From NCBI GenBank assembly GCA_963727825.1, contig CAVSHO010000009.1, positions 352,001 through 416,000 of the forward strand: a stretch of 64,000 nucleotides of DNA, written 5' to 3'. The position numbers were made by a program, and so were the translations under genes. Shown here piece after piece: positions 24,101-32,446 of the stretch. Within the stretch, counting starts at the first letter, position 1. Each line of letters begins with the position of its first letter. The stretch comes from Ignavibacteriota bacterium. GTDB lineage: Bacteria > Bacteroidota > Ignavibacteria > UBA10030. The notes below the pieces were generated by a model. It ran no database searches. It was given only the letters and a program-made list of their open reading frames with translations, and was not told where the DNA came from.

Positions 24101-24139
24101 CAAAACACAAACGCCGATGTTGTTTCCAACACCGGCGTT
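24101..24139 (-). terminator. Repeated terminator-like hairpin, copy 1 (after gdhA)
   Basis: Minus strand CGCCGGTG-TTGGAAACAA-CATCGGCG-TTTGTGTTTTG. Confidence 0.75.
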
Positions 24140-25745: not shown

Positions 25746-25854
25746 CCTCATGTTGGAAGGGAGTTTCACTCCCGACCTTTGCTTGCTCGGGAGAACATCT
25801 CCCTCGCAACTTTGTTCCAAAACACAAAACGCTGATGATGTTTACACCACCTGC
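25746..25854. repeat. ~110-bp direct repeat A: REP doublet plus degenerate copy 2 of the terminator hairpin
   Basis: GGAAGGGAGTTTCACTCCCGA...TCGGGAGAACATCTCCCTCGCAAC followed by CAAAACACAAAACGCTGATG; nearly identical to 26489-26598. Confidence 0.85.
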
Positions 25855-25877: not shown

Positions 25878-26464
25878 TTAAAAGAATAGTACATCTTTTG
25901 GGGTTTCTTTGTCAAATGTCCATGTAATGACATTATTGGCAATGTAATCGCGGATGTTATTTAATTCTTTTTCATTGCGGATAATTCGGTCATAATATCT
26001 TGGCTGCCAAAGCGGTGTATCCCCCGCACCGGTTAAATGCATTTCATTGATTCGTTTTGTAACAGCAGATTTGAATGACCTCACAATTGTCGACAATGAA
26101 CCAGGTACTGGTTTCCTGAATTGTTCCAGTAGTAGGGACGCGGCATGCCGTGTCCCTACTGATTCATTCAATATTAATATTCCATGAATATGGTTCGGCA
26201 GCCGGAGGCCTTAGAATGTTGCCCCGCATCGTGGGGCACCTTCTTTTCATATTCATCCAATACAACATTCGAAAAATGCTCCGGAATTCCTTTCCAACAT
26301 CTATTAATAATATTTCCCTCCTCATTCAAATTCATCTTACCGTCTACAATTGCACCAAACCTGTGTTCATGATTTTGTGCACAAATTGTTACAAAATATT
26401 CTCCCGGCTGGGAATAATCAAATCCTTTAAGGCGAATCGTTTTTCTTTTATGCTTTTCTATCAT
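25878..26464 (-). mobile_element. REP-associated tyrosine transposase (RAYT/TnpA-REP, Y1 HUH) pseudogene
   Basis: RKTIRLKGFDYSQPGEYFVTIC, HUH motif PNHIHG (different frame after a ~40-bp insertion), SLSTIVRSFKS, WQPRYYDRIIRNEKEL...YIANN. Confidence 0.85.
26132..26159. repeat. GTAG-type REP palindrome inside the RAYT coding sequence
   Basis: GTAGGGACGCGGCATGCCGTGTCCCTAC. Confidence 0.8.
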
Positions 26465-26488
26465 CAACACGATTTCAAAACACAACCG

Positions 26489-26598
26489 CCTCACGCTGGA
26501 AGGGAGTTTCACTCCCGACCTTTGCTTGCTCGGGAGAACATCTCCCTCGCAACTTTGTTCCAAAACACAAAACGCCGATGATGTTTCCAACACCGGCG
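26489..26598. repeat. ~110-bp direct repeat B: REP doublet plus copy 3 of the terminator hairpin
   Basis: Matches 25746-25854; hairpin at 26561-26598 lies just after the serine hydrolase stop. Confidence 0.85.
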
Positions 26599-26623: not shown

Positions 26624-27991
26624 TTATATTCCAAGCAATCTTCGTATCTGCTTGGTAATTTTTTCGGCGACAGGCGGATCATAATTGCTCAGTACGACTA
26701 TCACATAGTCGGTTCGTTTGTTCCACTCCAGCGCCGCATTGACGCCGGCAGTTCCACCGGCAATTCCCATCCCGTTACGCGCTTCAAATGATTTTGGTGC
26801 AATTGCACTGTTCTGCAGTGCCTTCGTATACAAGAGTAAATCATATGCAGTAGAATATCCTCCACCGGCGGAACTTCCCTTCTGTGGCAGGAGTTCTGTA
26901 TTCCGATGTCGCACGCTATCCTTGCCGTTTCCTGTCGAGTAAGTATATCCGAAAGAACAATTCACCGGAATTGCAGTTCGTTCGTACCAATCAGTATTTG
27001 TCATGCCGGCAGGGATCAATAATTCCTTCTTTATATACTTATAATAATCCATTCCTGTTACGTGTTCGATGATCACCCCAAGAACGATATAACCACCGTT
27101 CGAATAACGGTTTCTTGTCCCGGGTTCAAACTCAAGCGGTTTATCGGCGAACAATGGGAGATAATCCTGTAAACTTCTGATCTTCTCTTTGTGGGCAGCG
27201 ATAAACCGTTCACCAAAGAAATCGCCAATACCGGACCTCATATCGAGCAAGTGTTGTATTGTCACTTTTACCGCAGCATCTTTATTAGGATATTCGGGAA
27301 GAAATTTTTGGATCGGATCGCTAAACTTTAGTTTTCCCTGCTCGGCTAATCTATGAATCGCAAGCGCTGTAAAACTTTTATCCATAGAGCCAATATTGAA
27401 TTTCGTATCGAGGGTATTGAGTATTTTATTTTCCTTATCGGCAAATCCCCATGCATGCTGATAGACTGGCTCGCCGTTTCGTGCGATCAGCACCACACCG
27501 GAAAAATCATCAGATGCCGCAAGCCTGTCGACATACTCTTCGGTCTTTGCTGCCAAATCGATATCGTTCTTTGCCGATTCTACGCTGCTCTCTCCTGTAT
27601 CCTCATCAATTCCGATACCGACGATTCCATGCGGGGCTTCTGGCTCAAACTCAAACGTCATCGCCAGTTTTTTTCCACTTCCATCTACAACAATCGTTTT
27701 CACAAAAGTTTGCTGAACAATGAGTGCTCTTTGGAATGTCAACCCTTTGGTCATAGAATAGAACTGTCTGTAGCGTTCGAGCCGTTGAGCAATAGGGGCT
27801 CCCTTCAAAACATCTGCAGCATAGTGCACAAGGATGAATTCCTTCATCACGGTTGTATCGCCTGAATTGAATGCTTTGAAATATTCCGCTGCCACCTGCC
27901 CTGATGGCGAATCTGACAGCGAAATCTGCTGCTGAGCATGTAGTGGATGAAGAAAGATGAGTAATAAAACCAAAACGGAACCAATGCGCAT
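26624..27991 (-). CDS. Secreted serine hydrolase, beta-lactamase class C/PBP-like family
   Basis: Signal peptide, FNIGSMDK (SxxK), YSN (YxN), FEPG, GGGYSTAYDL. Confidence 0.88.
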   Translation of the reverse strand: MRIGSVLVLLLIFLHPLHAQQQISLSDSPSGQVAAEYFKAFNSGDTTVMKEFILVHYAADVLKGAPIAQRLERYRQFYSMTKGLTFQRALIVQQTFVKTIVVDGSGKKLAMTFEFEPEAPHGIVGIGIDEDTGESSVESAKNDIDLAAKTEEYVDRLAASDDFSGVVLIARNGEPVYQHAWGFADKENKILNTLDTKFNIGSMDKSFTALAIHRLAEQGKLKFSDPIQKFLPEYPNKDAAVKVTIQHLLDMRSGIGDFFGERFIAAHKEKIRSLQDYLPLFADKPLEFEPGTRNRYSNGGYIVLGVIIEHVTGMDYYKYIKKELLIPAGMTNTDWYERTAIPVNCSFGYTYSTGNGKDSVRHRNTELLPQKGSSAGGGYSTAYDLLLYTKALQNSAIAPKSFEARNGMGIAGGTAGVNAALEWNKRTDYVIVVLSNYDPPVAEKITKQIRRLLGI

Positions 27992-28119
27992 AGCGTTACT
28001 CCTTGTTTATAGAAATTGTACGTTTGACGTTGGCTGTAAAAGATTGTTCCGTCCGACCATTGTGCCATACTCTCCCGAGAGTCAAACTGATGCTCCGGAG
28101 TGATAAGGTAAGCCACTTT

Positions 28120-28156
28120 AAAACACAAACGCCGATGATGTTTCCACCACCGGCGC
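28120..28156 (-). terminator. Repeated terminator-like hairpin, copy 4 (after the RT gene)
   Basis: AAAACACAAACGCCGATGATGTTTCCACCACCGGCG on the plus strand. Confidence 0.75.
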
Positions 28157-28198
28157 ATTATAGTATTAAAAGAAGAAATGCTCTTTCATTTTGTAAAA

Positions 28199-29041
28199 TT
28201 AATCCGTGTCTTTTACCATTCTCTTTAGATCATCAGCCTGTTGAGGATTTACATATGCTATATAGTCAATTTTCCCTTTGATCGATTTATAGCTTCCTTT
28301 TAAGTTCTTTTTGTAGTCAACAATTTCATGTTTCACGGCATCAACATAACGTTGATTAACCCTTAGTTTAGGATATACTCCAATTCCCATTATCTCTCTT
28401 GGAGATTTGTTATTAAAGACCTCAAATTCATCAAGTAGAAATCCATGCTGTCTAAATATTTTTACAAATAATCTTTGAAACCCTGCTGGGTCAAAATCTG
28501 ACCCAATCACTAAATTGTCTGCATACAGACCGACTCGGAACGCCTCTTTTCCCGCCAATCCGTCGAGTCGAATTATTACAGGATTTAAAGTAAGTGCAGC
28601 AATTTTTGGACTTGTTGGAAATCCTTGAGGAAGTTCAAAATCAAAGGTTATTATTCTTGTAATTAGTTTTGCTGCAGGATTATCAAAATTCAAACCCATG
28701 AGTGTTTTTGTCACCATTGCAGGATAGATTGTAGGATAAAAATCATCGACATCCGCTGCAATCAAGAACTTCGACTTTGAAAATTGAGAAAGCATTTTGA
28801 TATGATTACATCCAGGTTGTAAAAAAAGGAATTTATGCAAAGTGAATTGGCTTAAGATCATCTTATTTATTTTGCGCAACAGATCTTTTAATTCCTCGTT
28901 TGGACATGTGATATCTCGATATCCTCCACTCTTCTTTGCCTTCTTCCGCTTTTTCACCATATAAGACAGATTGCGTGCAATAAAAGAAAGATACTCTTCT
29001 CTTTTATTAAGACGATTCGCAATCTCCTGGATTAAGATCAT
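28199..29041 (-). CDS. Retron-like reverse transcriptase with non-canonical motifs (start ATG 29041 or TTG 29053)
   Basis: KKSGGYRDITCP (RT1), ADVDDFYPTI (RT3), LPQGFPTSP (RT4), LYADNLVI (RT5), IMG (at the VTG position), C-terminal GKIDYIAYVN; about 280 aa with no maturase, Cas1 or nuclease domain. Confidence 0.85.
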   Translation of the reverse strand: MILIQEIANRLNKREEYLSFIARNLSYMVKKRKKAKKSGGYRDITCPNEELKDLLRKINKMILSQFTLHKFLFLQPGCNHIKMLSQFSKSKFLIAADVDDFYPTIYPAMVTKTLMGLNFDNPAAKLITRIITFDFELPQGFPTSPKIAALTLNPVIIRLDGLAGKEAFRVGLYADNLVIGSDFDPAGFQRLFVKIFRQHGFLLDEFEVFNNKSPREIMGIGVYPKLRVNQRYVDAVKHEIVDYKKNLKGSYKSIKGKIDYIAYVNPQQADDLKRMVKDTD

Positions 29042-29053
29042 TGAGGTGAACAA

Positions 29054-29296
29054 TTAATAAGATTGAATAAGTAGTGTTCGTTGGGGTTCTAAATAAGTTT
29101 TGTGGGAGAAGCTCACGATGATCGAGATTAACTTAGCAATAAATTCTAAAACTCTTAACAAAAAACCCAAAGGTTTTTCATTCCGATTTAAGAATTTAAC
29201 AAACTTACTTTTCTTTCTCGAATATCTATAAAGCTTCTCCCTTCTCCTGATTCGATTATAACATCGAATTAAGCGAAGTACAAGCTTCCTTTTCAT
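29054..29296 (-). CDS. Small basic protein with hydrophobic/amphipathic helix, candidate RT-associated effector
   Basis: Strong AGGAGG Shine-Dalgarno upstream of the ATG; K/R-rich N-half; LGFLLRVLEFIAKLISIIVSF helix; in frame with the RT. Confidence 0.65.
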   Translation of the reverse strand: MKRKLVLRLIRCYNRIRRREKLYRYSRKKSKFVKFLNRNEKPLGFLLRVLEFIAKLISIIVSFSHKTYLEPQRTLLIQSY

Positions 29297-29581
29297 GTTC
29301 TTTTCCTCCTTTCTAATCGTTTAGTGGAACATATCATTATGAATCGATGATTAGTCGCCACAATGCCTGTACTTTCAAAACTTGAAAAAAAACGCATAGA
29401 GCGTTTCGTTTTATCCATGCATTGCACTGTATAAATTTCTGCAATTGCATAATTGTCTAATAAACAGATATATATTCTCCTATTTATTAGAAATTCTCAG
29501 ATTGGTTTGAACACATATACCCAAATCAACCGAGATACGGCTAGTTTCGCCGGGAAAAGAGGCTAACCTTAGAACATGAAA
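29291..29581 (-). ncRNA. Putative RT-associated structured ncRNA (msr-msd-like)
   Basis: Perfect 11-bp terminal inverted repeat TTTCATGTTCT/AGAACATGAAA enclosing hairpins at 29539-29568, 29495-29535, 29456-29491, 29417-29450, 29390-29406 and 29313-29354. G-U pairs in the first three favour the minus strand. Confidence 0.7.
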
Positions 29582-29689
29582 TTTCAAAGAACATCTAACA
29601 ACTAAAACAAAAAACATTTCTTAAAAAATATTATCAAGAAAAACCGTTCGTGTTTCCATCCCACCAAACAACGTCGGGACGTCAGCATA

Positions 29690-32446
29690 TCAGGAACATC
29701 CTGATGTGCTTCCACACTCCAGACATTTGTAACACGAGCCGCTTCGAATCATAATGCTTCCGCACTCGTGGCATGGAGGTGCATCGGATTGTGTTTCAAA
29801 TACAAATTTCTCGTTCTTCTCCAGCACCGAGGCAGCTTTTGTCGCCGCAGCATTGAGAATCGCACCCGGTTTTTTCGCAGTCTCTGCACTAATTTTTACA
29901 TCGCTCATTGGCGCCTCACCGCGATCCTCTATAAGGAACTTCTTACCAAGCCATCGGAAAATATAATCGCTAACCGACTTTGCAATCGGTATCTCCGGAT
30001 TGTTAGTAAAACCGGATGGTTCATAGCGCGCGTGGCTGAACTTATCCACCAGCACTTTCAGCGGCACACCGTACTGCAGAGCAATCGAAACAGACGTTGC
30101 CAGAGAATCCATTAATCCGGAAATCGTGGAACCCTCTTTAGACATCGTTATGAACAACTCGCCGGGTGATCCGTCTTCAAACATCCCGACGGTGATATAA
30201 CCTTCGTGGCCGGCAATACTGAATTTGTGCGTGATAGATTGGCGTTCATCCGGCAAATGCCGCCGGGCAGGTTTGTTACTTATCTGCAGTTTTTCCTTTT
30301 TCTTGTCGAGTGAAGTACTGAGAGGCTGTGTACGCTTGCATCCGTCGCGGTATACAGCAATAGCTTTTAATCCAAGTCTCCATGCTTCGGTATACGCTTT
30401 CATGATATCTTCTGCATTCACATCGGTCGGCATGTTCACAGTTTTGGAGATCGCACCGGAAAGGAATGGTTGTGATGCCGCCATCATCTTAATATGCCCC
30501 ATATAGGGAATGAAGCGCTTGCCGTTTGCCGGTTTGAATGCGCAGTCAAATACCCGAAGATGTTCTTCCTTCAAATGCGGCGCACCTTCGATTGTGTCGT
30601 TCTTATCGATATAAGAAATAATGTGTTCAATCTGTTCATCGTCGTAGCCCAATTTCGTGAGTGCTTCCGGCACTGTTTGGTTGACGATCTTCATCAATCC
30701 GCCACCGCTCATCTTTTTATACTTCACAAGAGCGATATCAGGTTCAATTCCTGTGGTGTCACAATCCATCATGAACCCGATTGTGCCTGTCGGAGCAAGA
30801 ACTGTCGTTTGCGAATTGCGGATGCCGTGCATTCGTCCAAGTTCAACAACATCTTTCCATACGTTACACTGCGCTTCCCATAGACTTGGTTCTACCGCAT
30901 TCTTATCGATGCGTTCTGCGTGAATGCCATGTTTCGCCATCACGTTCAACATCGGGTCTTTATTTACTGCGAATCCGCTAAACGGTCCTTGTGCTTGAGC
31001 AATCTTAGCAGATTGTTTGTACGCTTCGCCACTCATTAATGATGTGATAGCAGCGGTTAATGTTCTGCCCTCATCGCTATCGTACGCAACACCGCGGGAC
31101 ATCAGCATTGCGCCGAGGTTTGCATACCCGAGTCCGAGCGGGCGATAGTCGTGGCTGTTTTGCGCAATTGCCGGTGTCGGGTAACTCGAGTTATCAACGG
31201 ACATTTCCATTGCGGTAATTGTAACCTGAATAGCTTTTTTAAACGCTTCCACATCGAGATCGCCGTTTGCCCTACGAAACTTCATCAGGTTCAAAGATGC
31301 AAGGTTGCATGCACTGTCATCAAGGAACATGTACTCGCTGCAAGGATTGGATGAATAAATCGGTGCGGTACCGGAACATGTGTGCCAGTTGTTGATCGTT
31401 GTATCAAATTGAATACCCGGGTCGCCACATATCCATGCTGCATCGGCAATTTGTTTCATCAGATCGCGCGCGCGGAATTTTTCTACCGGCATTCCGCCTT
31501 TTACAGCTTTGGTCCAAAATTCCTTATCTTCCAGAACAGCTTTCATGAATTCATCGCTTACACGAATAGAGTGATTGGCGTTTTGATAGAACACAGAATC
31601 ATACGCGCCGCCTGGAACATTGAATCCACCGTCGTAACCCGCATCGATGAGCGCACAAGCTTTTTTCTCTTCTTCCGCTTTACAATTGATGAAACTGATA
31701 ATATCCGGATGGTCGACATTTAATATTACCATCTTTGCAGCGCGGCGTGTCTTGCCACCGGATTTAATCACGCCTGCAAACGCATCGTACCCTTTCATAA
31801 ACGAAACCGGGCCGGATGCAGTACCGCCGCCGGTAATGCGTTCCTTGGAAGAACGAAGTGTCGAAAGATTAGAACCTGTGCCCGAACCGTACTTAAAGAG
31901 CATACCTTCTGTCTTTGCAAGCTCCAGTATGGAGGTCATTGAATCTTTCACTGAATTAATAAAGCAGGCCGAACATTGCGGCATTTTTTCTACACCCACA
32001 TTAAACCATACCGGGCTGTTGAAGGACATATATTGATTGACGAGAATGAAGACCAGTTCATTATAAAATATTTCTGCGTCTTCTTCCGACGCGAAATAGC
32101 CATCTTTCAAACCCCAGGCATAGTACGATTTTGCAACACGGTCGACAAGCTGACGTATGCTCGTTTCACGCTCTGGAGTACCCATTTGACCATAGAAATA
32201 TTTTGAAACAACAACATTAGTTGCAGTCATTGACCAAAACTTTGGGATTTCTACATCTTTCTGTTCAAAGATTTTTTCACCACGATCATTTGAAATAATT
32301 GCAGTGCGTAGTTCCCATTCAATTTCATTAAAAGGATGAATACCTCGTTTAGTAAAGTACCGCTCAAAACGCAATCCGTGTTTTTCTGTGGCGTGCATAT
32401 TATTATGAGAATCTACCGAAACATTGGCTGGTTGCAAATTCTGCAT
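29690..32446 (-). CDS. nrdJ: Class II (adenosylcobalamin-dependent) ribonucleotide reductase with C-terminal TSCPD/Zn-ribbon
   Basis: QCSACFI, NPCSEY, LGLGYANLG, APTGTIG, GAISKTVN, C-terminal CHECG...CLECGSTSGCS. Confidence 0.95.
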   Translation of the reverse strand: MQNLQPANVSVDSHNNMHATEKHGLRFERYFTKRGIHPFNEIEWELRTAIISNDRGEKIFEQKDVEIPKFWSMTATNVVVSKYFYGQMGTPERETSIRQLVDRVAKSYYAWGLKDGYFASEEDAEIFYNELVFILVNQYMSFNSPVWFNVGVEKMPQCSACFINSVKDSMTSILELAKTEGMLFKYGSGTGSNLSTLRSSKERITGGGTASGPVSFMKGYDAFAGVIKSGGKTRRAAKMVILNVDHPDIISFINCKAEEEKKACALIDAGYDGGFNVPGGAYDSVFYQNANHSIRVSDEFMKAVLEDKEFWTKAVKGGMPVEKFRARDLMKQIADAAWICGDPGIQFDTTINNWHTCSGTAPIYSSNPCSEYMFLDDSACNLASLNLMKFRRANGDLDVEAFKKAIQVTITAMEMSVDNSSYPTPAIAQNSHDYRPLGLGYANLGAMLMSRGVAYDSDEGRTLTAAITSLMSGEAYKQSAKIAQAQGPFSGFAVNKDPMLNVMAKHGIHAERIDKNAVEPSLWEAQCNVWKDVVELGRMHGIRNSQTTVLAPTGTIGFMMDCDTTGIEPDIALVKYKKMSGGGLMKIVNQTVPEALTKLGYDDEQIEHIISYIDKNDTIEGAPHLKEEHLRVFDCAFKPANGKRFIPYMGHIKMMAASQPFLSGAISKTVNMPTDVNAEDIMKAYTEAWRLGLKAIAVYRDGCKRTQPLSTSLDKKKEKLQISNKPARRHLPDERQSITHKFSIAGHEGYITVGMFEDGSPGELFITMSKEGSTISGLMDSLATSVSIALQYGVPLKVLVDKFSHARYEPSGFTNNPEIPIAKSVSDYIFRWLGKKFLIEDRGEAPMSDVKISAETAKKPGAILNAAATKAASVLEKNEKFVFETQSDAPPCHECGSIMIRSGSCYKCLECGSTSGCS

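Follow-up and report, generated by a model that had tools for sequence, protein, structure and literature searches.

This analysis concerns a retron-like reverse transcriptase (RT) locus in a 64,000-nucleotide stretch of DNA from an Ignavibacteriota bacterium (assembly GCA_963727825.1, contig CAVSHO010000009.1, positions 352,001 to 416,000), hereafter called the window. On the minus strand the order is nrdJ, a non-coding stretch of ~390 nt, a small open reading frame (ORF) whose product we call the small protein (SP), the RT gene, a hairpin and a serine hydrolase gene. A preliminary description, made from the letters alone, had proposed a retron-type RT system of three co-oriented minus-strand parts, and the ORFs, the hidden Markov model (HMM) matches and the predicted fold bear this out. 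It had also likened the partner ORF to no known retron effector and called the system undescribed or poorly described. Neither view is supported as worded, as the layout is that of type VI retrons, which were defined in 2020 by a Cro/C1 helix-turn-helix (HTH) protein together with small (75–79 aa) helical auxiliary proteins (PMC7736814). The three parts are:

29297–29594, minus strand: structured non-coding retron RNA part (msr-msd-like), ~298 nt, conserved in an alignment of seven loci (A2)
29054–29296, minus strand: small ORF (SP), 80 aa, candidate toxic effector, with its ATG at 29294–29296
28199–29053, minus strand: RT ORF, 284 aa from a TTG; the ATG at 29041, giving 280 aa, is the probable start because homologues begin there

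Both sequence HMMs and fold place the RT among the retron RTs. It matches Pfam RVT_1 (4e-12), and the best 25 of its 39 PADLOC matches are all retron RT models, headed by a near tie of RT_II-A (1.1e-34, 118 bits), RT_VI (2.3e-34, 117 bits) and RT_III-A (3.3e-32, 110 bits). The NCBIfam model retron_St85 is matched at 1e-29, a score far under that model's cutoff. When a profile of the RT family was compared with PDB sequences, all 12 of the 12 matches were retron RTs, with Ec86 the best (4e-20). An AlphaFold model of the protein (pLDDT 92, pTM 0.84) was used as a Foldseek query; ranks 1–17 are all retron RTs, with query-normalized TM-scores (TMq) of 0.65–0.85. Other RTs rank lower: group II intron RTs at TMq 0.64–0.67, a diversity-generating retroelement (DGR) RT at 0.64 (rank 25) and the defense-associated RT (DRT) DRT9 at 0.59, the range for DRT9 and Abi-P2 being 0.49–0.59.

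Three other affiliations were considered and rejected. The preliminary description had entertained a place among the DRT and unknown-group (UG) RTs; this fails on the absence of any DRT model from the best 25 PADLOC matches and on the lower fold scores, the 17 best fold matches being retron RTs. A DGR is ruled out since the genome holds no second copy of the RNA and SP region, only chance matches of 19–37 nt (E 0.85), SP has no Avd or other Pfam match, and the DGR RT comes only 25th by fold. A group II intron RT is ruled out by a TMq of 0.64–0.67, reached after 17 retron ranks.

Within the retron lineage, close relatives of this RT are few. A HMMER search of 1.84 billion representatives returned 4960 proteins at E<=0.001, only 10 of which lie at E<=1e-30, and there is a clear gap in score: the ten representatives have E<=2.1e-38 and the next protein 2.7e-27. 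A word-based search of 5.8 billion proteins found 9 RT relatives. The preliminary description had proposed placing the RT in a phylogeny of bacterial RTs, and in our maximum-likelihood (ML) tree all 18 family rows are monophyletic among retron-type RTs with ultrafast bootstrap (UFBoot)/SH-aLRT support of 100/100. The tree has 55 rows (18 family members, 31 neighbors labeled by their best PADLOC model and six further references); it leaves out close copies of the window protein (P0001-3, P0007, P0008) and a fragment (P0018), and was built without type IV/V outgroups and without the reference set of Mestre et al. The nearest relatives are a sister group of five proteins, itself supported at 100/98. 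The union of family and sister group, which includes the long-branched row P0047, is supported at 84/88, and deeper nodes are without support. We conclude that the RT forms a small, rare clade of its own among retron RTs. The best-HMM labels of the tree neighbors were set aside as unreliable, as the mixed VI/III-A PADLOC labels do not track the tree. The sister group is also poorly typed by PADLOC, at 173–183 bits.

Scans of genome and metagenome contigs gave eight distinct family loci with DNA: the window, L026, L027, L028, L029, L030 (identical to L031), L033 and L001 (identical to L032), the last from a metagenome-assembled genome (MAG) of Wenzhouxiangella. The RNA and SP, which the preliminary description treated as parts of one system with the RT, are indeed kept directly upstream of it in 7 of the 8. 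In each of these seven loci the SP stop and the RT start abut or overlap, and there is no obvious Shine-Dalgarno (SD) sequence ahead of the RT start in the window. RNA, SP and RT are a conserved unit. The eighth locus, L030 (3091–4008), carries an RT of the family with YADN at its active-site motif C; the RNA and nearly all of SP are replaced by a 305-aa ORF, and only the last ~14 codons recall the end of the SP gene of L029. The 305-aa ORF has a weak endonuclease/exonuclease/phosphatase match (3.7e-5, just under the Pfam cutoff) and a hydrophobic N-terminus that by eye could be a lipoprotein signal.

The sequence elements of the RNA discussed below are:

29586–29592, minus strand: 5′ heptamer GUUCUUU, invariant in 7/7 loci
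29571–29581, minus strand: anti-start-codon strand, the 5′ arm of an 11-bp inverted repeat, pairing with 29291–29301, AUG included
29554–29562, minus strand: anti-SD strand CCUCUUUUC, pairing with GAAAGGAGG at 29305–29313
29538–29552, minus strand: hairpin 1 (CGGC-loop-GCCG), conserved; RNAalifold pairs 58–61/70–73 of A2
29305–29313, minus strand: SD sequence GAAAGGAGG of the small ORF, with GGAGG in 7/7 loci, 8–10 nt before the AUG

The preliminary description had noted a perfect 11-bp inverted repeat bounding a hairpin-rich region. The repeat is real, with arms at 29291–29301 and 29571–29581 that lie 269 nt apart, and it corresponds to the start-codon helix described below. Taken alone, it is moderately unusual: 18 of 500 dinucleotide shuffles of 29250–29720 reach 11 bp or more. 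It is retained in L026 and L027 through wobble-compatible changes, and four more distant loci have an equivalent helix of different sequence. The structure claimed for the region is also supported, as a folding energy of -80.6 kcal/mol is computed for the 344 nt of upstream RNA (z = -2.3; 2 of 100 shuffles are as good). The claim that the RNA and the ORF are separate parts fails: the arm at 29291–29301 overlaps the SP start codon, and RNA and small ORF therefore form one regulatory unit, not two parts.

The 5′ and 3′ ends of the ~300-nt RNA can be aligned in all seven loci, while its middle is variable. In the minimum-free-energy folds of all seven, a pyrimidine strand CCUCYUUUC (29554–29562 in the window) pairs with the SD sequence, and the same pairing is seen in duplex folds of 7/7 loci. 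A second strand, further 5′, pairs with the SP start codon and its flanks, again in 7/7 loci; the one exception within this helix is the A of the AUG, which is unpaired in L033. The start-codon helix is built from different sequences in L028/L029, L033 and L001, and pairs are changed on both sides at positions -4, -3, -2, -1, +3, +4, +5 and +6 relative to the AUG. Column-wise covariation on the MAFFT alignment A2 was given up, as the anti-SD strand is shifted by one column between lineages. The helices were instead tabulated from per-sequence duplex folds anchored on the AUG, a procedure that leans towards structure and was controlled by shuffling: the number of shuffled 5′ strands that reach the observed duplex energy is 6, 7, 4, 1, 0, 0 and 5 of 300 in the seven loci. 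This control is conservative, as dinucleotide shuffles retain the pyrimidine bias.

Compensatory changes, which the preliminary description had suggested looking for, are thus found in the SD and AUG helices by duplex folding, and they are found in the hairpins by RNAalifold. In hairpin 1 two pairs are changed on both sides (GC to AU in L001); a further both-sided change in L033 (CCAGCC/GGCUG), seen by reading the alignment, went uncounted owing to the MAFFT offset. The helix just before the SD also has compensatory changes by RNAalifold, and the long central hairpin retains its form in L027 with other sequence. We conclude from these covarying folds that the SD and AUG of SP are, by prediction, sequestered by the 5′ part of the RNA. 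The long-range 5′/3′ helices, comparable to the a1/a2 terminal inverted repeats, lie on the same strand and are conserved in 7/7 loci. The GUUCUUU heptamer has a complementary partner beside the SD in 7/7 loci, at two different positions, and in four loci this pairing crosses other helices; it may form a priming stem or be part of an alternative fold. An Rfam scan of 27900–29900 at E<=10 gave four matches at chance level (best E 0.83), all far under the gathering scores, and so no RNA family already known.

The RNA is also covered by metatranscriptome contigs. Contigs from four runs in four studies cover 29305–29593 at 85–96% likeness, and thus come from relatives. Three of them, from three studies, stop at 29305/29306, at the last bases of the SD, a weak hint that an RNA ends there; homology with a relative's RNA contig stops one base ahead of the heptamer, at 29593. 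For the RT gene and the larger part of SP there is no RNA-contig cover, which is not evidence of their absence. The pattern hints, weakly, at an abundant discrete non-coding RNA. In one relative's RNA contig (run X16 record 4), the central 117 nt (window 29397–29515) are swapped for 211 unrelated letters and the flanks are retained, which fits a hypervariable msd-like core.

SP is small and strongly basic, with 22 K+R compared with 4 D+E, and has a hydrophobic segment at residues 43–63. Its predicted structure is all-helical (residues 2–27, 31–38 and 40–79; pLDDT 78, pTM only 0.33). The SP ORFs of the seven loci encode 80–110 aa at 15–83% identity and are built alike: a helix at the N-terminus, then a basic linker, then a hydrophobic helix, with S-x-K/Q-T as the closing motif. 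Relatives are rare, with only 13 among 5.8 billion proteins. Comparison with Pfam, PADLOC and NCBIfam gave nothing recurrent or convincing; the matches there are isolated and weak (best E 0.0018). The ESM Atlas and Foldseek/PDB likewise gave no convincing match. The SP toxins of type VI retrons are described as helical proteins of 55–79 aa whose hydrophobic C-terminal helix is toxic (10.1101/2025.10.22.683967; 10.64898/2026.04.27.721009), and SP of Retron-Vpa2 is toxic through such a helix (10.1101/2025.10.22.683967). By analogy, SP of the window is a putative toxic effector.

A studied counterpart for these features is Retron-Vpa2, in which msr-msd and the SP gene lie on one 'hybrid RNA' with the ribosome-binding site (RBS) and AUG inside stems; there, multicopy single-stranded DNA (msDNA) is required to derepress SP translation and an HTH protein restrains reverse transcription (10.1101/2025.10.22.683967). 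We suggest that the locus is a type VI-like abortive-infection retron without an HTH protein, in which a toxic SP is kept from translation by the RNA fold until an RT-dependent event opens that fold, and we give this reading a probability of about 0.55. One transcript would carry the structured msr-msd-like RNA, then the SP gene, then the RT gene. In the resting fold, the two segments near the RNA 5′ end would pair with the SD and start codon of SP and keep its translation low; RT translation would probably be low as well, because the RT ORF abuts or overlaps the end of SP. The RT would bind the RNA and copy part of it into complementary DNA (cDNA). Upon phage infection, cDNA build-up or a change in the RT-RNA complex would open the basal stem, and SP would be made and the cell arrested or killed. 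For this locus the toxicity of SP, the synthesis of cDNA, the trigger and the role in defense are what we infer.

The junction of the SP and RT ORFs bears on an alternative in which the locus works as a canonical retron toxin-antitoxin. SP would be made constitutively with the RT by coupled translation and neutralized post-translationally by RT or RT-msDNA, the RT standing in for the HTH antitoxin of type VI; proteins of the phage would disturb the complex and free SP, and the RNA helices would only tune expression. The abutting or overlapping ORFs in all seven loci, with no obvious SD before the RT of the window, would provide co-translation at a fixed ratio, and the lack of an HTH protein at hand calls for another antitoxin. 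There is a precedent in Retron-Sen3, where the RBS of SP lies in a basal stem, yet SP is constitutive and the HTH protein acts post-translationally as the antitoxin (10.64898/2026.04.27.721009). Sequestration of both SD and AUG, with full covariation in all lineages, is hard to square with mere tuning, and contact between RT and SP is without direct evidence. We consider this alternative unlikely, though it is one to be reckoned with beside the gating of SP translation by the RNA fold.

The active site of the RT is altered at three hallmark positions, read from an alignment of the family with 31 other retron-type RTs:

28781–28795, minus strand: region X, MLSQF replacing NAxxH
28514–28525, minus strand: motif C codons TAT GCA GAC AAT, encoding YADN
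28385–28393, minus strand: region Y, IMG replacing VTG

The substitutions at NAxxH, VTG (to IMG) and YADD (to YADN) had all been named in the preliminary description, correctly according to the alignment. YADN is invariant in 10/10 close homologues and present in 17 of the 18 family members. Since the sole YADD member, L033, is nested beside a YADN protein at 100/100, its YADD is most simply a reversal. At the NAxxH position, N is found in 0/18 members and H in 9/18; at the VTG position, T is found in 0/18, G in nine and N in the other nine. The most conserved hallmark residues of retron RTs are described as the H of NAxxH in region X and the G of VTG in region Y (PMC7736814). The family and its sister group show no variation in motif A (DxDD), in motif B (LPQGFPTSP) or at the first Asp of motif C. 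The window and L026 RT genes differ at 75/51/132 first, second and third codon positions, mostly third positions. Because YADN is so widely kept, motifs A and B are invariant and the differences from L026 favor third positions, we read the active site as altered, largely intact and under purifying selection, not decay. The YADN site is most likely still catalytic, maybe weakened. A full-text literature search for YADN with 'reverse transcriptase' gave no paper on this RT motif, as judged by titles and abstracts. The RT clade is without description in the literature searched, a search that did not extend to the reference RT lists in the supplements of retron papers.

Non-canonical motifs could mark a retron in decay, as the preliminary description had allowed, or a neutral remnant without present function, and the loss of the RNA and almost all of SP in L030/L031 would agree with such a history. 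This is very improbable. The ORFs are intact in all eight distinct loci at 37–91% identity, with YADN retained as described; third-position bias relative to L026 is seen in the RT gene and in the SP gene (3/10/19 by codon position). Between the window and L026, identity is higher in the RNA (88.5%) than in the neighboring housekeeping gene (77.1% at the nrdJ end), with 86.7% for the SP gene and 69.7% for the RT gene, and the helices of the RNA covary. The preliminary description had named two outcomes that would refute it, namely canonical motifs with a known effector in the homologues and a lack of conservation of the upstream RNA and ORF; neither is what the homologues show.

A different reading of the same motifs is that YADN and the loss of NAxxH and VTG abolish msDNA synthesis, and that the RT has become an RNA-binding regulator or antitoxin that holds the translation-off fold. 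In favor of this, the clade as a whole has changed forms of the three retron signature motifs. In Vpa2 a catalytically dead RT lacks toxicity and binding of the RT to the hybrid RNA persists, and no type VI retron tested is reported to have given msDNA at baseline (10.1101/2025.10.22.683967). Drift at the catalytic residues would be expected of a protein that only binds RNA, and the clade does the opposite: D97 and D175 (280-aa numbering) and PQG, P and S of motif B are invariant in clade and sister group, motif C keeps its first Asp throughout, and L033, nested inside the family, has YADD. Natural polymerases with a D-N motif C, those of non-segmented negative-strand RNA viruses with their GDN, are active. 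We regard loss of synthesis as doubtful, somewhat more so than neutralization of SP by the RT.

The altered motifs also admit a variant of the gating circuit in which the enzyme itself replaces the HTH brake. YADN and the changed regions X and Y would make a throttled or condition-dependent RT, responsive perhaps to a metal ion or to the deoxynucleotide (dNTP) pool, and the RNA would toggle between a priming-competent fold with the GUUCUUU stem and a translation-off fold in which the SD and AUG are concealed. We offer this tentatively and consider it unlikely. If true, copying of the RNA into DNA and translation of the toxin would be linked in a minimal immune switch of two proteins and one RNA.

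Several observations weigh against an HTH-less type VI-like retron with RNA-gated toxin translation. The HTH protein is essential for restraint in both type VI retrons studied (10.1101/2025.10.22.683967; 10.64898/2026.04.27.721009), and HTH proteins accompany ~78% of type VI entries (10.64898/2026.04.27.721009). An HTH gene is found in 0/7 family loci, where the abutment of SP and RT leaves no room for one; Pfam HTH matches are absent from the SPs and from the three further neighboring ORFs of the family loci that were scanned. The type of the RT is ambiguous. In the window RT_VI, RT_III-A and RT_II-A tie at 110–118 bits, and family relatives score 132–161 bits on their best PADLOC models, compared with 237–383 for proteins clearly of a single type. 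Three proteins that clearly match RT_VI score 237–249 bits, compared with 117 for the window RT, and in the ML tree, whose deep nodes are unsupported, the family stands apart from proteins with high RT_VI scores. An enzyme with YADN that has lost N and H at NAxxH and T at VTG might not make msDNA.

The RNA and SP contribute points of the same sign. A conserved unpaired branching G was not identified among the seven sequences. In a search of the 5′ strand against the inner RNA for direct repeats such as those proposed between msd and riboregulator in Vpa2, the longest repeats are 6–7 nt and not significant, matched by 87–179 of 200 shuffles. The RNA contigs are from relatives and silent on ends, strand and level, and their runs were chosen with this stretch. 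SP has no sequence link elsewhere, including the small ORF of a Lysinibacillus locus described below (hhalign probability 0.3%). Finally, if RT translation is coupled to that of SP, strict repression of SP blocks the RT also; repression of SP therefore cannot be absolute, which is the chief point in favor of the RT as antitoxin.

The features flanking the unit are:

29690–32446, minus strand: nrdJ, from the ORF list
29630–29658, minus strand: weak sigma-70-like candidate promoter, TGGAAA-17-GATAAT, 9/12 matches, ~40 nt upstream of where the conserved RNA has its 5′ end
28129–28156, minus strand: repetitive extragenic palindromic (REP)-type terminator-like hairpin closing the operon, a 12-bp stem followed by a T-run
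26624–27991, minus strand: beta-lactamase-family serine hydrolase, by Pfam

The promoter scan is not significant, with seven such sites in the region compared with 6.0 expected from shuffles. The AT-rich insert after nrdJ noted in the preliminary description is confirmed: G+C is 0.32–0.38 across 28200–29650, compared with 0.43–0.49 in both flanks, and the insert, between nrdJ and the REP-type hairpin, has 33% G+C. No close homologue is present in 100 related genomes, 15 of them from the same genus, where four other matches are 22–26% identical. In 5/5 same-genus genomes examined, homology runs up to the nrdJ stop codon and no further, and nothing in them matches any part of the retron. The low G+C and the absence from same-genus genomes indicate an insertion, that is, horizontal acquisition of the locus as judged by composition and distribution. 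L026 and L027 likewise sit just after nrdJ, which may reflect either a favored site or inheritance within a sub-lineage. Plasmids hold no family member (41 records, all at <60% identity, the 12 among the matches listed at 23–28%), and IMG/VR holds none either (one relative at 23%).

A REP-like G+C-rich hairpin occurs in four copies in the window (0 expected), at 24112–24135, 25830–25853, 26573–26596 and 28130–28153, all on the minus strand, and at least two of these lie just downstream of gene ends (a gdhA-like gene and the RT gene). A match to it lies within ~200 nt of the nrdJ end in three of the five same-genus genomes (G002, G009, G015), which have no retron there. Among the hairpins, at 25878–26593 on the minus strand, is a Y1 transposase of the IS200-like/REP-associated tyrosine transposase (RAYT) type that is frameshifted into two ORFs, of 139 aa and 97 aa, in different frames. 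In L026 a Y1_Tnp gene lies just downstream of the retron and is intact (204 aa).

Of all retrons, those of type VI are understood least, and their two studied members use opposite control logics, both HTH-dependent. A lineage that retains the hybrid RNA and SP without an HTH protein would be the simplest version of the type VI circuit. The locus offers a direct test of how an RT-RNA complex gates toxin translation, with helices already defined by covariation. In addition, a clade with YADN fixed and the N and T of the hallmarks lost would imply either that these hallmarks are dispensable for retron function or that a retron RT can be recruited to a non-polymerase role. Retron surveys based on HMMs or motifs can miss or mis-type such lineages.

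Compared with canonical retrons, the RT has the full-length fold, including the C-terminal helical region, a similar size (~280–320 aa) and a structured RNA upstream. The fold matches reach TMq 0.81–0.85 for Ec86/Eco1, Eco7, Ec78 (9nnb), the type I-A complex 9n69 and Ec67/Eco2, and 0.77 for Ec78 in 9l7p. Unlike in canonical retrons, the effector is tiny, has no recognizable domain and lies between RNA and RT, the three motifs are altered, and msDNA is a prediction. The sister group (P0019, P0020, P0029, P0041, P0050) shares with the family a one-residue deletion before region X and a short RT of 266–281 aa; it differs in having AAxxH, VLG or SLG with the G retained, and (Y/F)(V/A)DD. None of the loci collected here belongs to this group.

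In type I toxin-antitoxin mRNAs such as hok/sok and tisB, translation is inhibited by folding back, the ribosome site being paired to the 5′ part of its own transcript. The locus would resemble these in having a small, possibly membrane-active toxin with a sequestered ribosome site. It differs in that no antisense RNA is evident here, an RT gene is part of the unit, and SP is larger and strongly basic.

Among other RT loci in the collection, L014 (570–1845, Lysinibacillus sp.) has an RT whose RT_VI score is 249 bits and whose NAxxH, YYDD and VTG are canonical. Directly upstream of it is a 92-aa ORF with a hydrophobic C-terminal half, and its 5.2-kb contig has no HTH gene; type VI-like layouts without an HTH protein may thus exist elsewhere. 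L003, L008 and L011 (Prevotella and related) encode RTs of 401–412 aa that match best the RT-protease type XI models (312–323 bits). They are too short for a protease domain and resemble protease-independent type XI-like lineages (PMC13712802). Many of L038–L064 (also Prevotella and related) are alike by length and match coordinates only and are untyped.

The nearest counterparts are the type VI retrons of RT clade 3 (Retron-Vpa2, Retron-Eco12, Retron-Sen3). The locus shares with them the order of RNA, small helical protein and RT on one strand, an RNA of ~280–300 nt before the small ORF with terminal inverted repeats and a variable center, and RNA stems that hold the small protein's RBS and start codon. 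The Retron-Sen3 lineage likewise has a conserved RNA within ~280 nt of the SP start that is bounded by terminal inverted repeats (10.64898/2026.04.27.721009). By position, by size (55–80 aa over both) and by predicted helices, with a hydrophobic one at the C-terminus, the small protein also fits the published description. Unlike type VI retrons, the family has no Cro/C1-type HTH protein in any of its seven loci, and its RT carries YADN and lacks both the N of NAxxH and the T of VTG. The basal stem closes just around the SP start here, whereas the distal inverted repeat of Vpa2 and Sen3 also encloses the SP coding region. The literature searched holds no description of this RT clade, of YADN as its conserved motif or of the missing HTH partner; the layout itself is known from type VI retrons.

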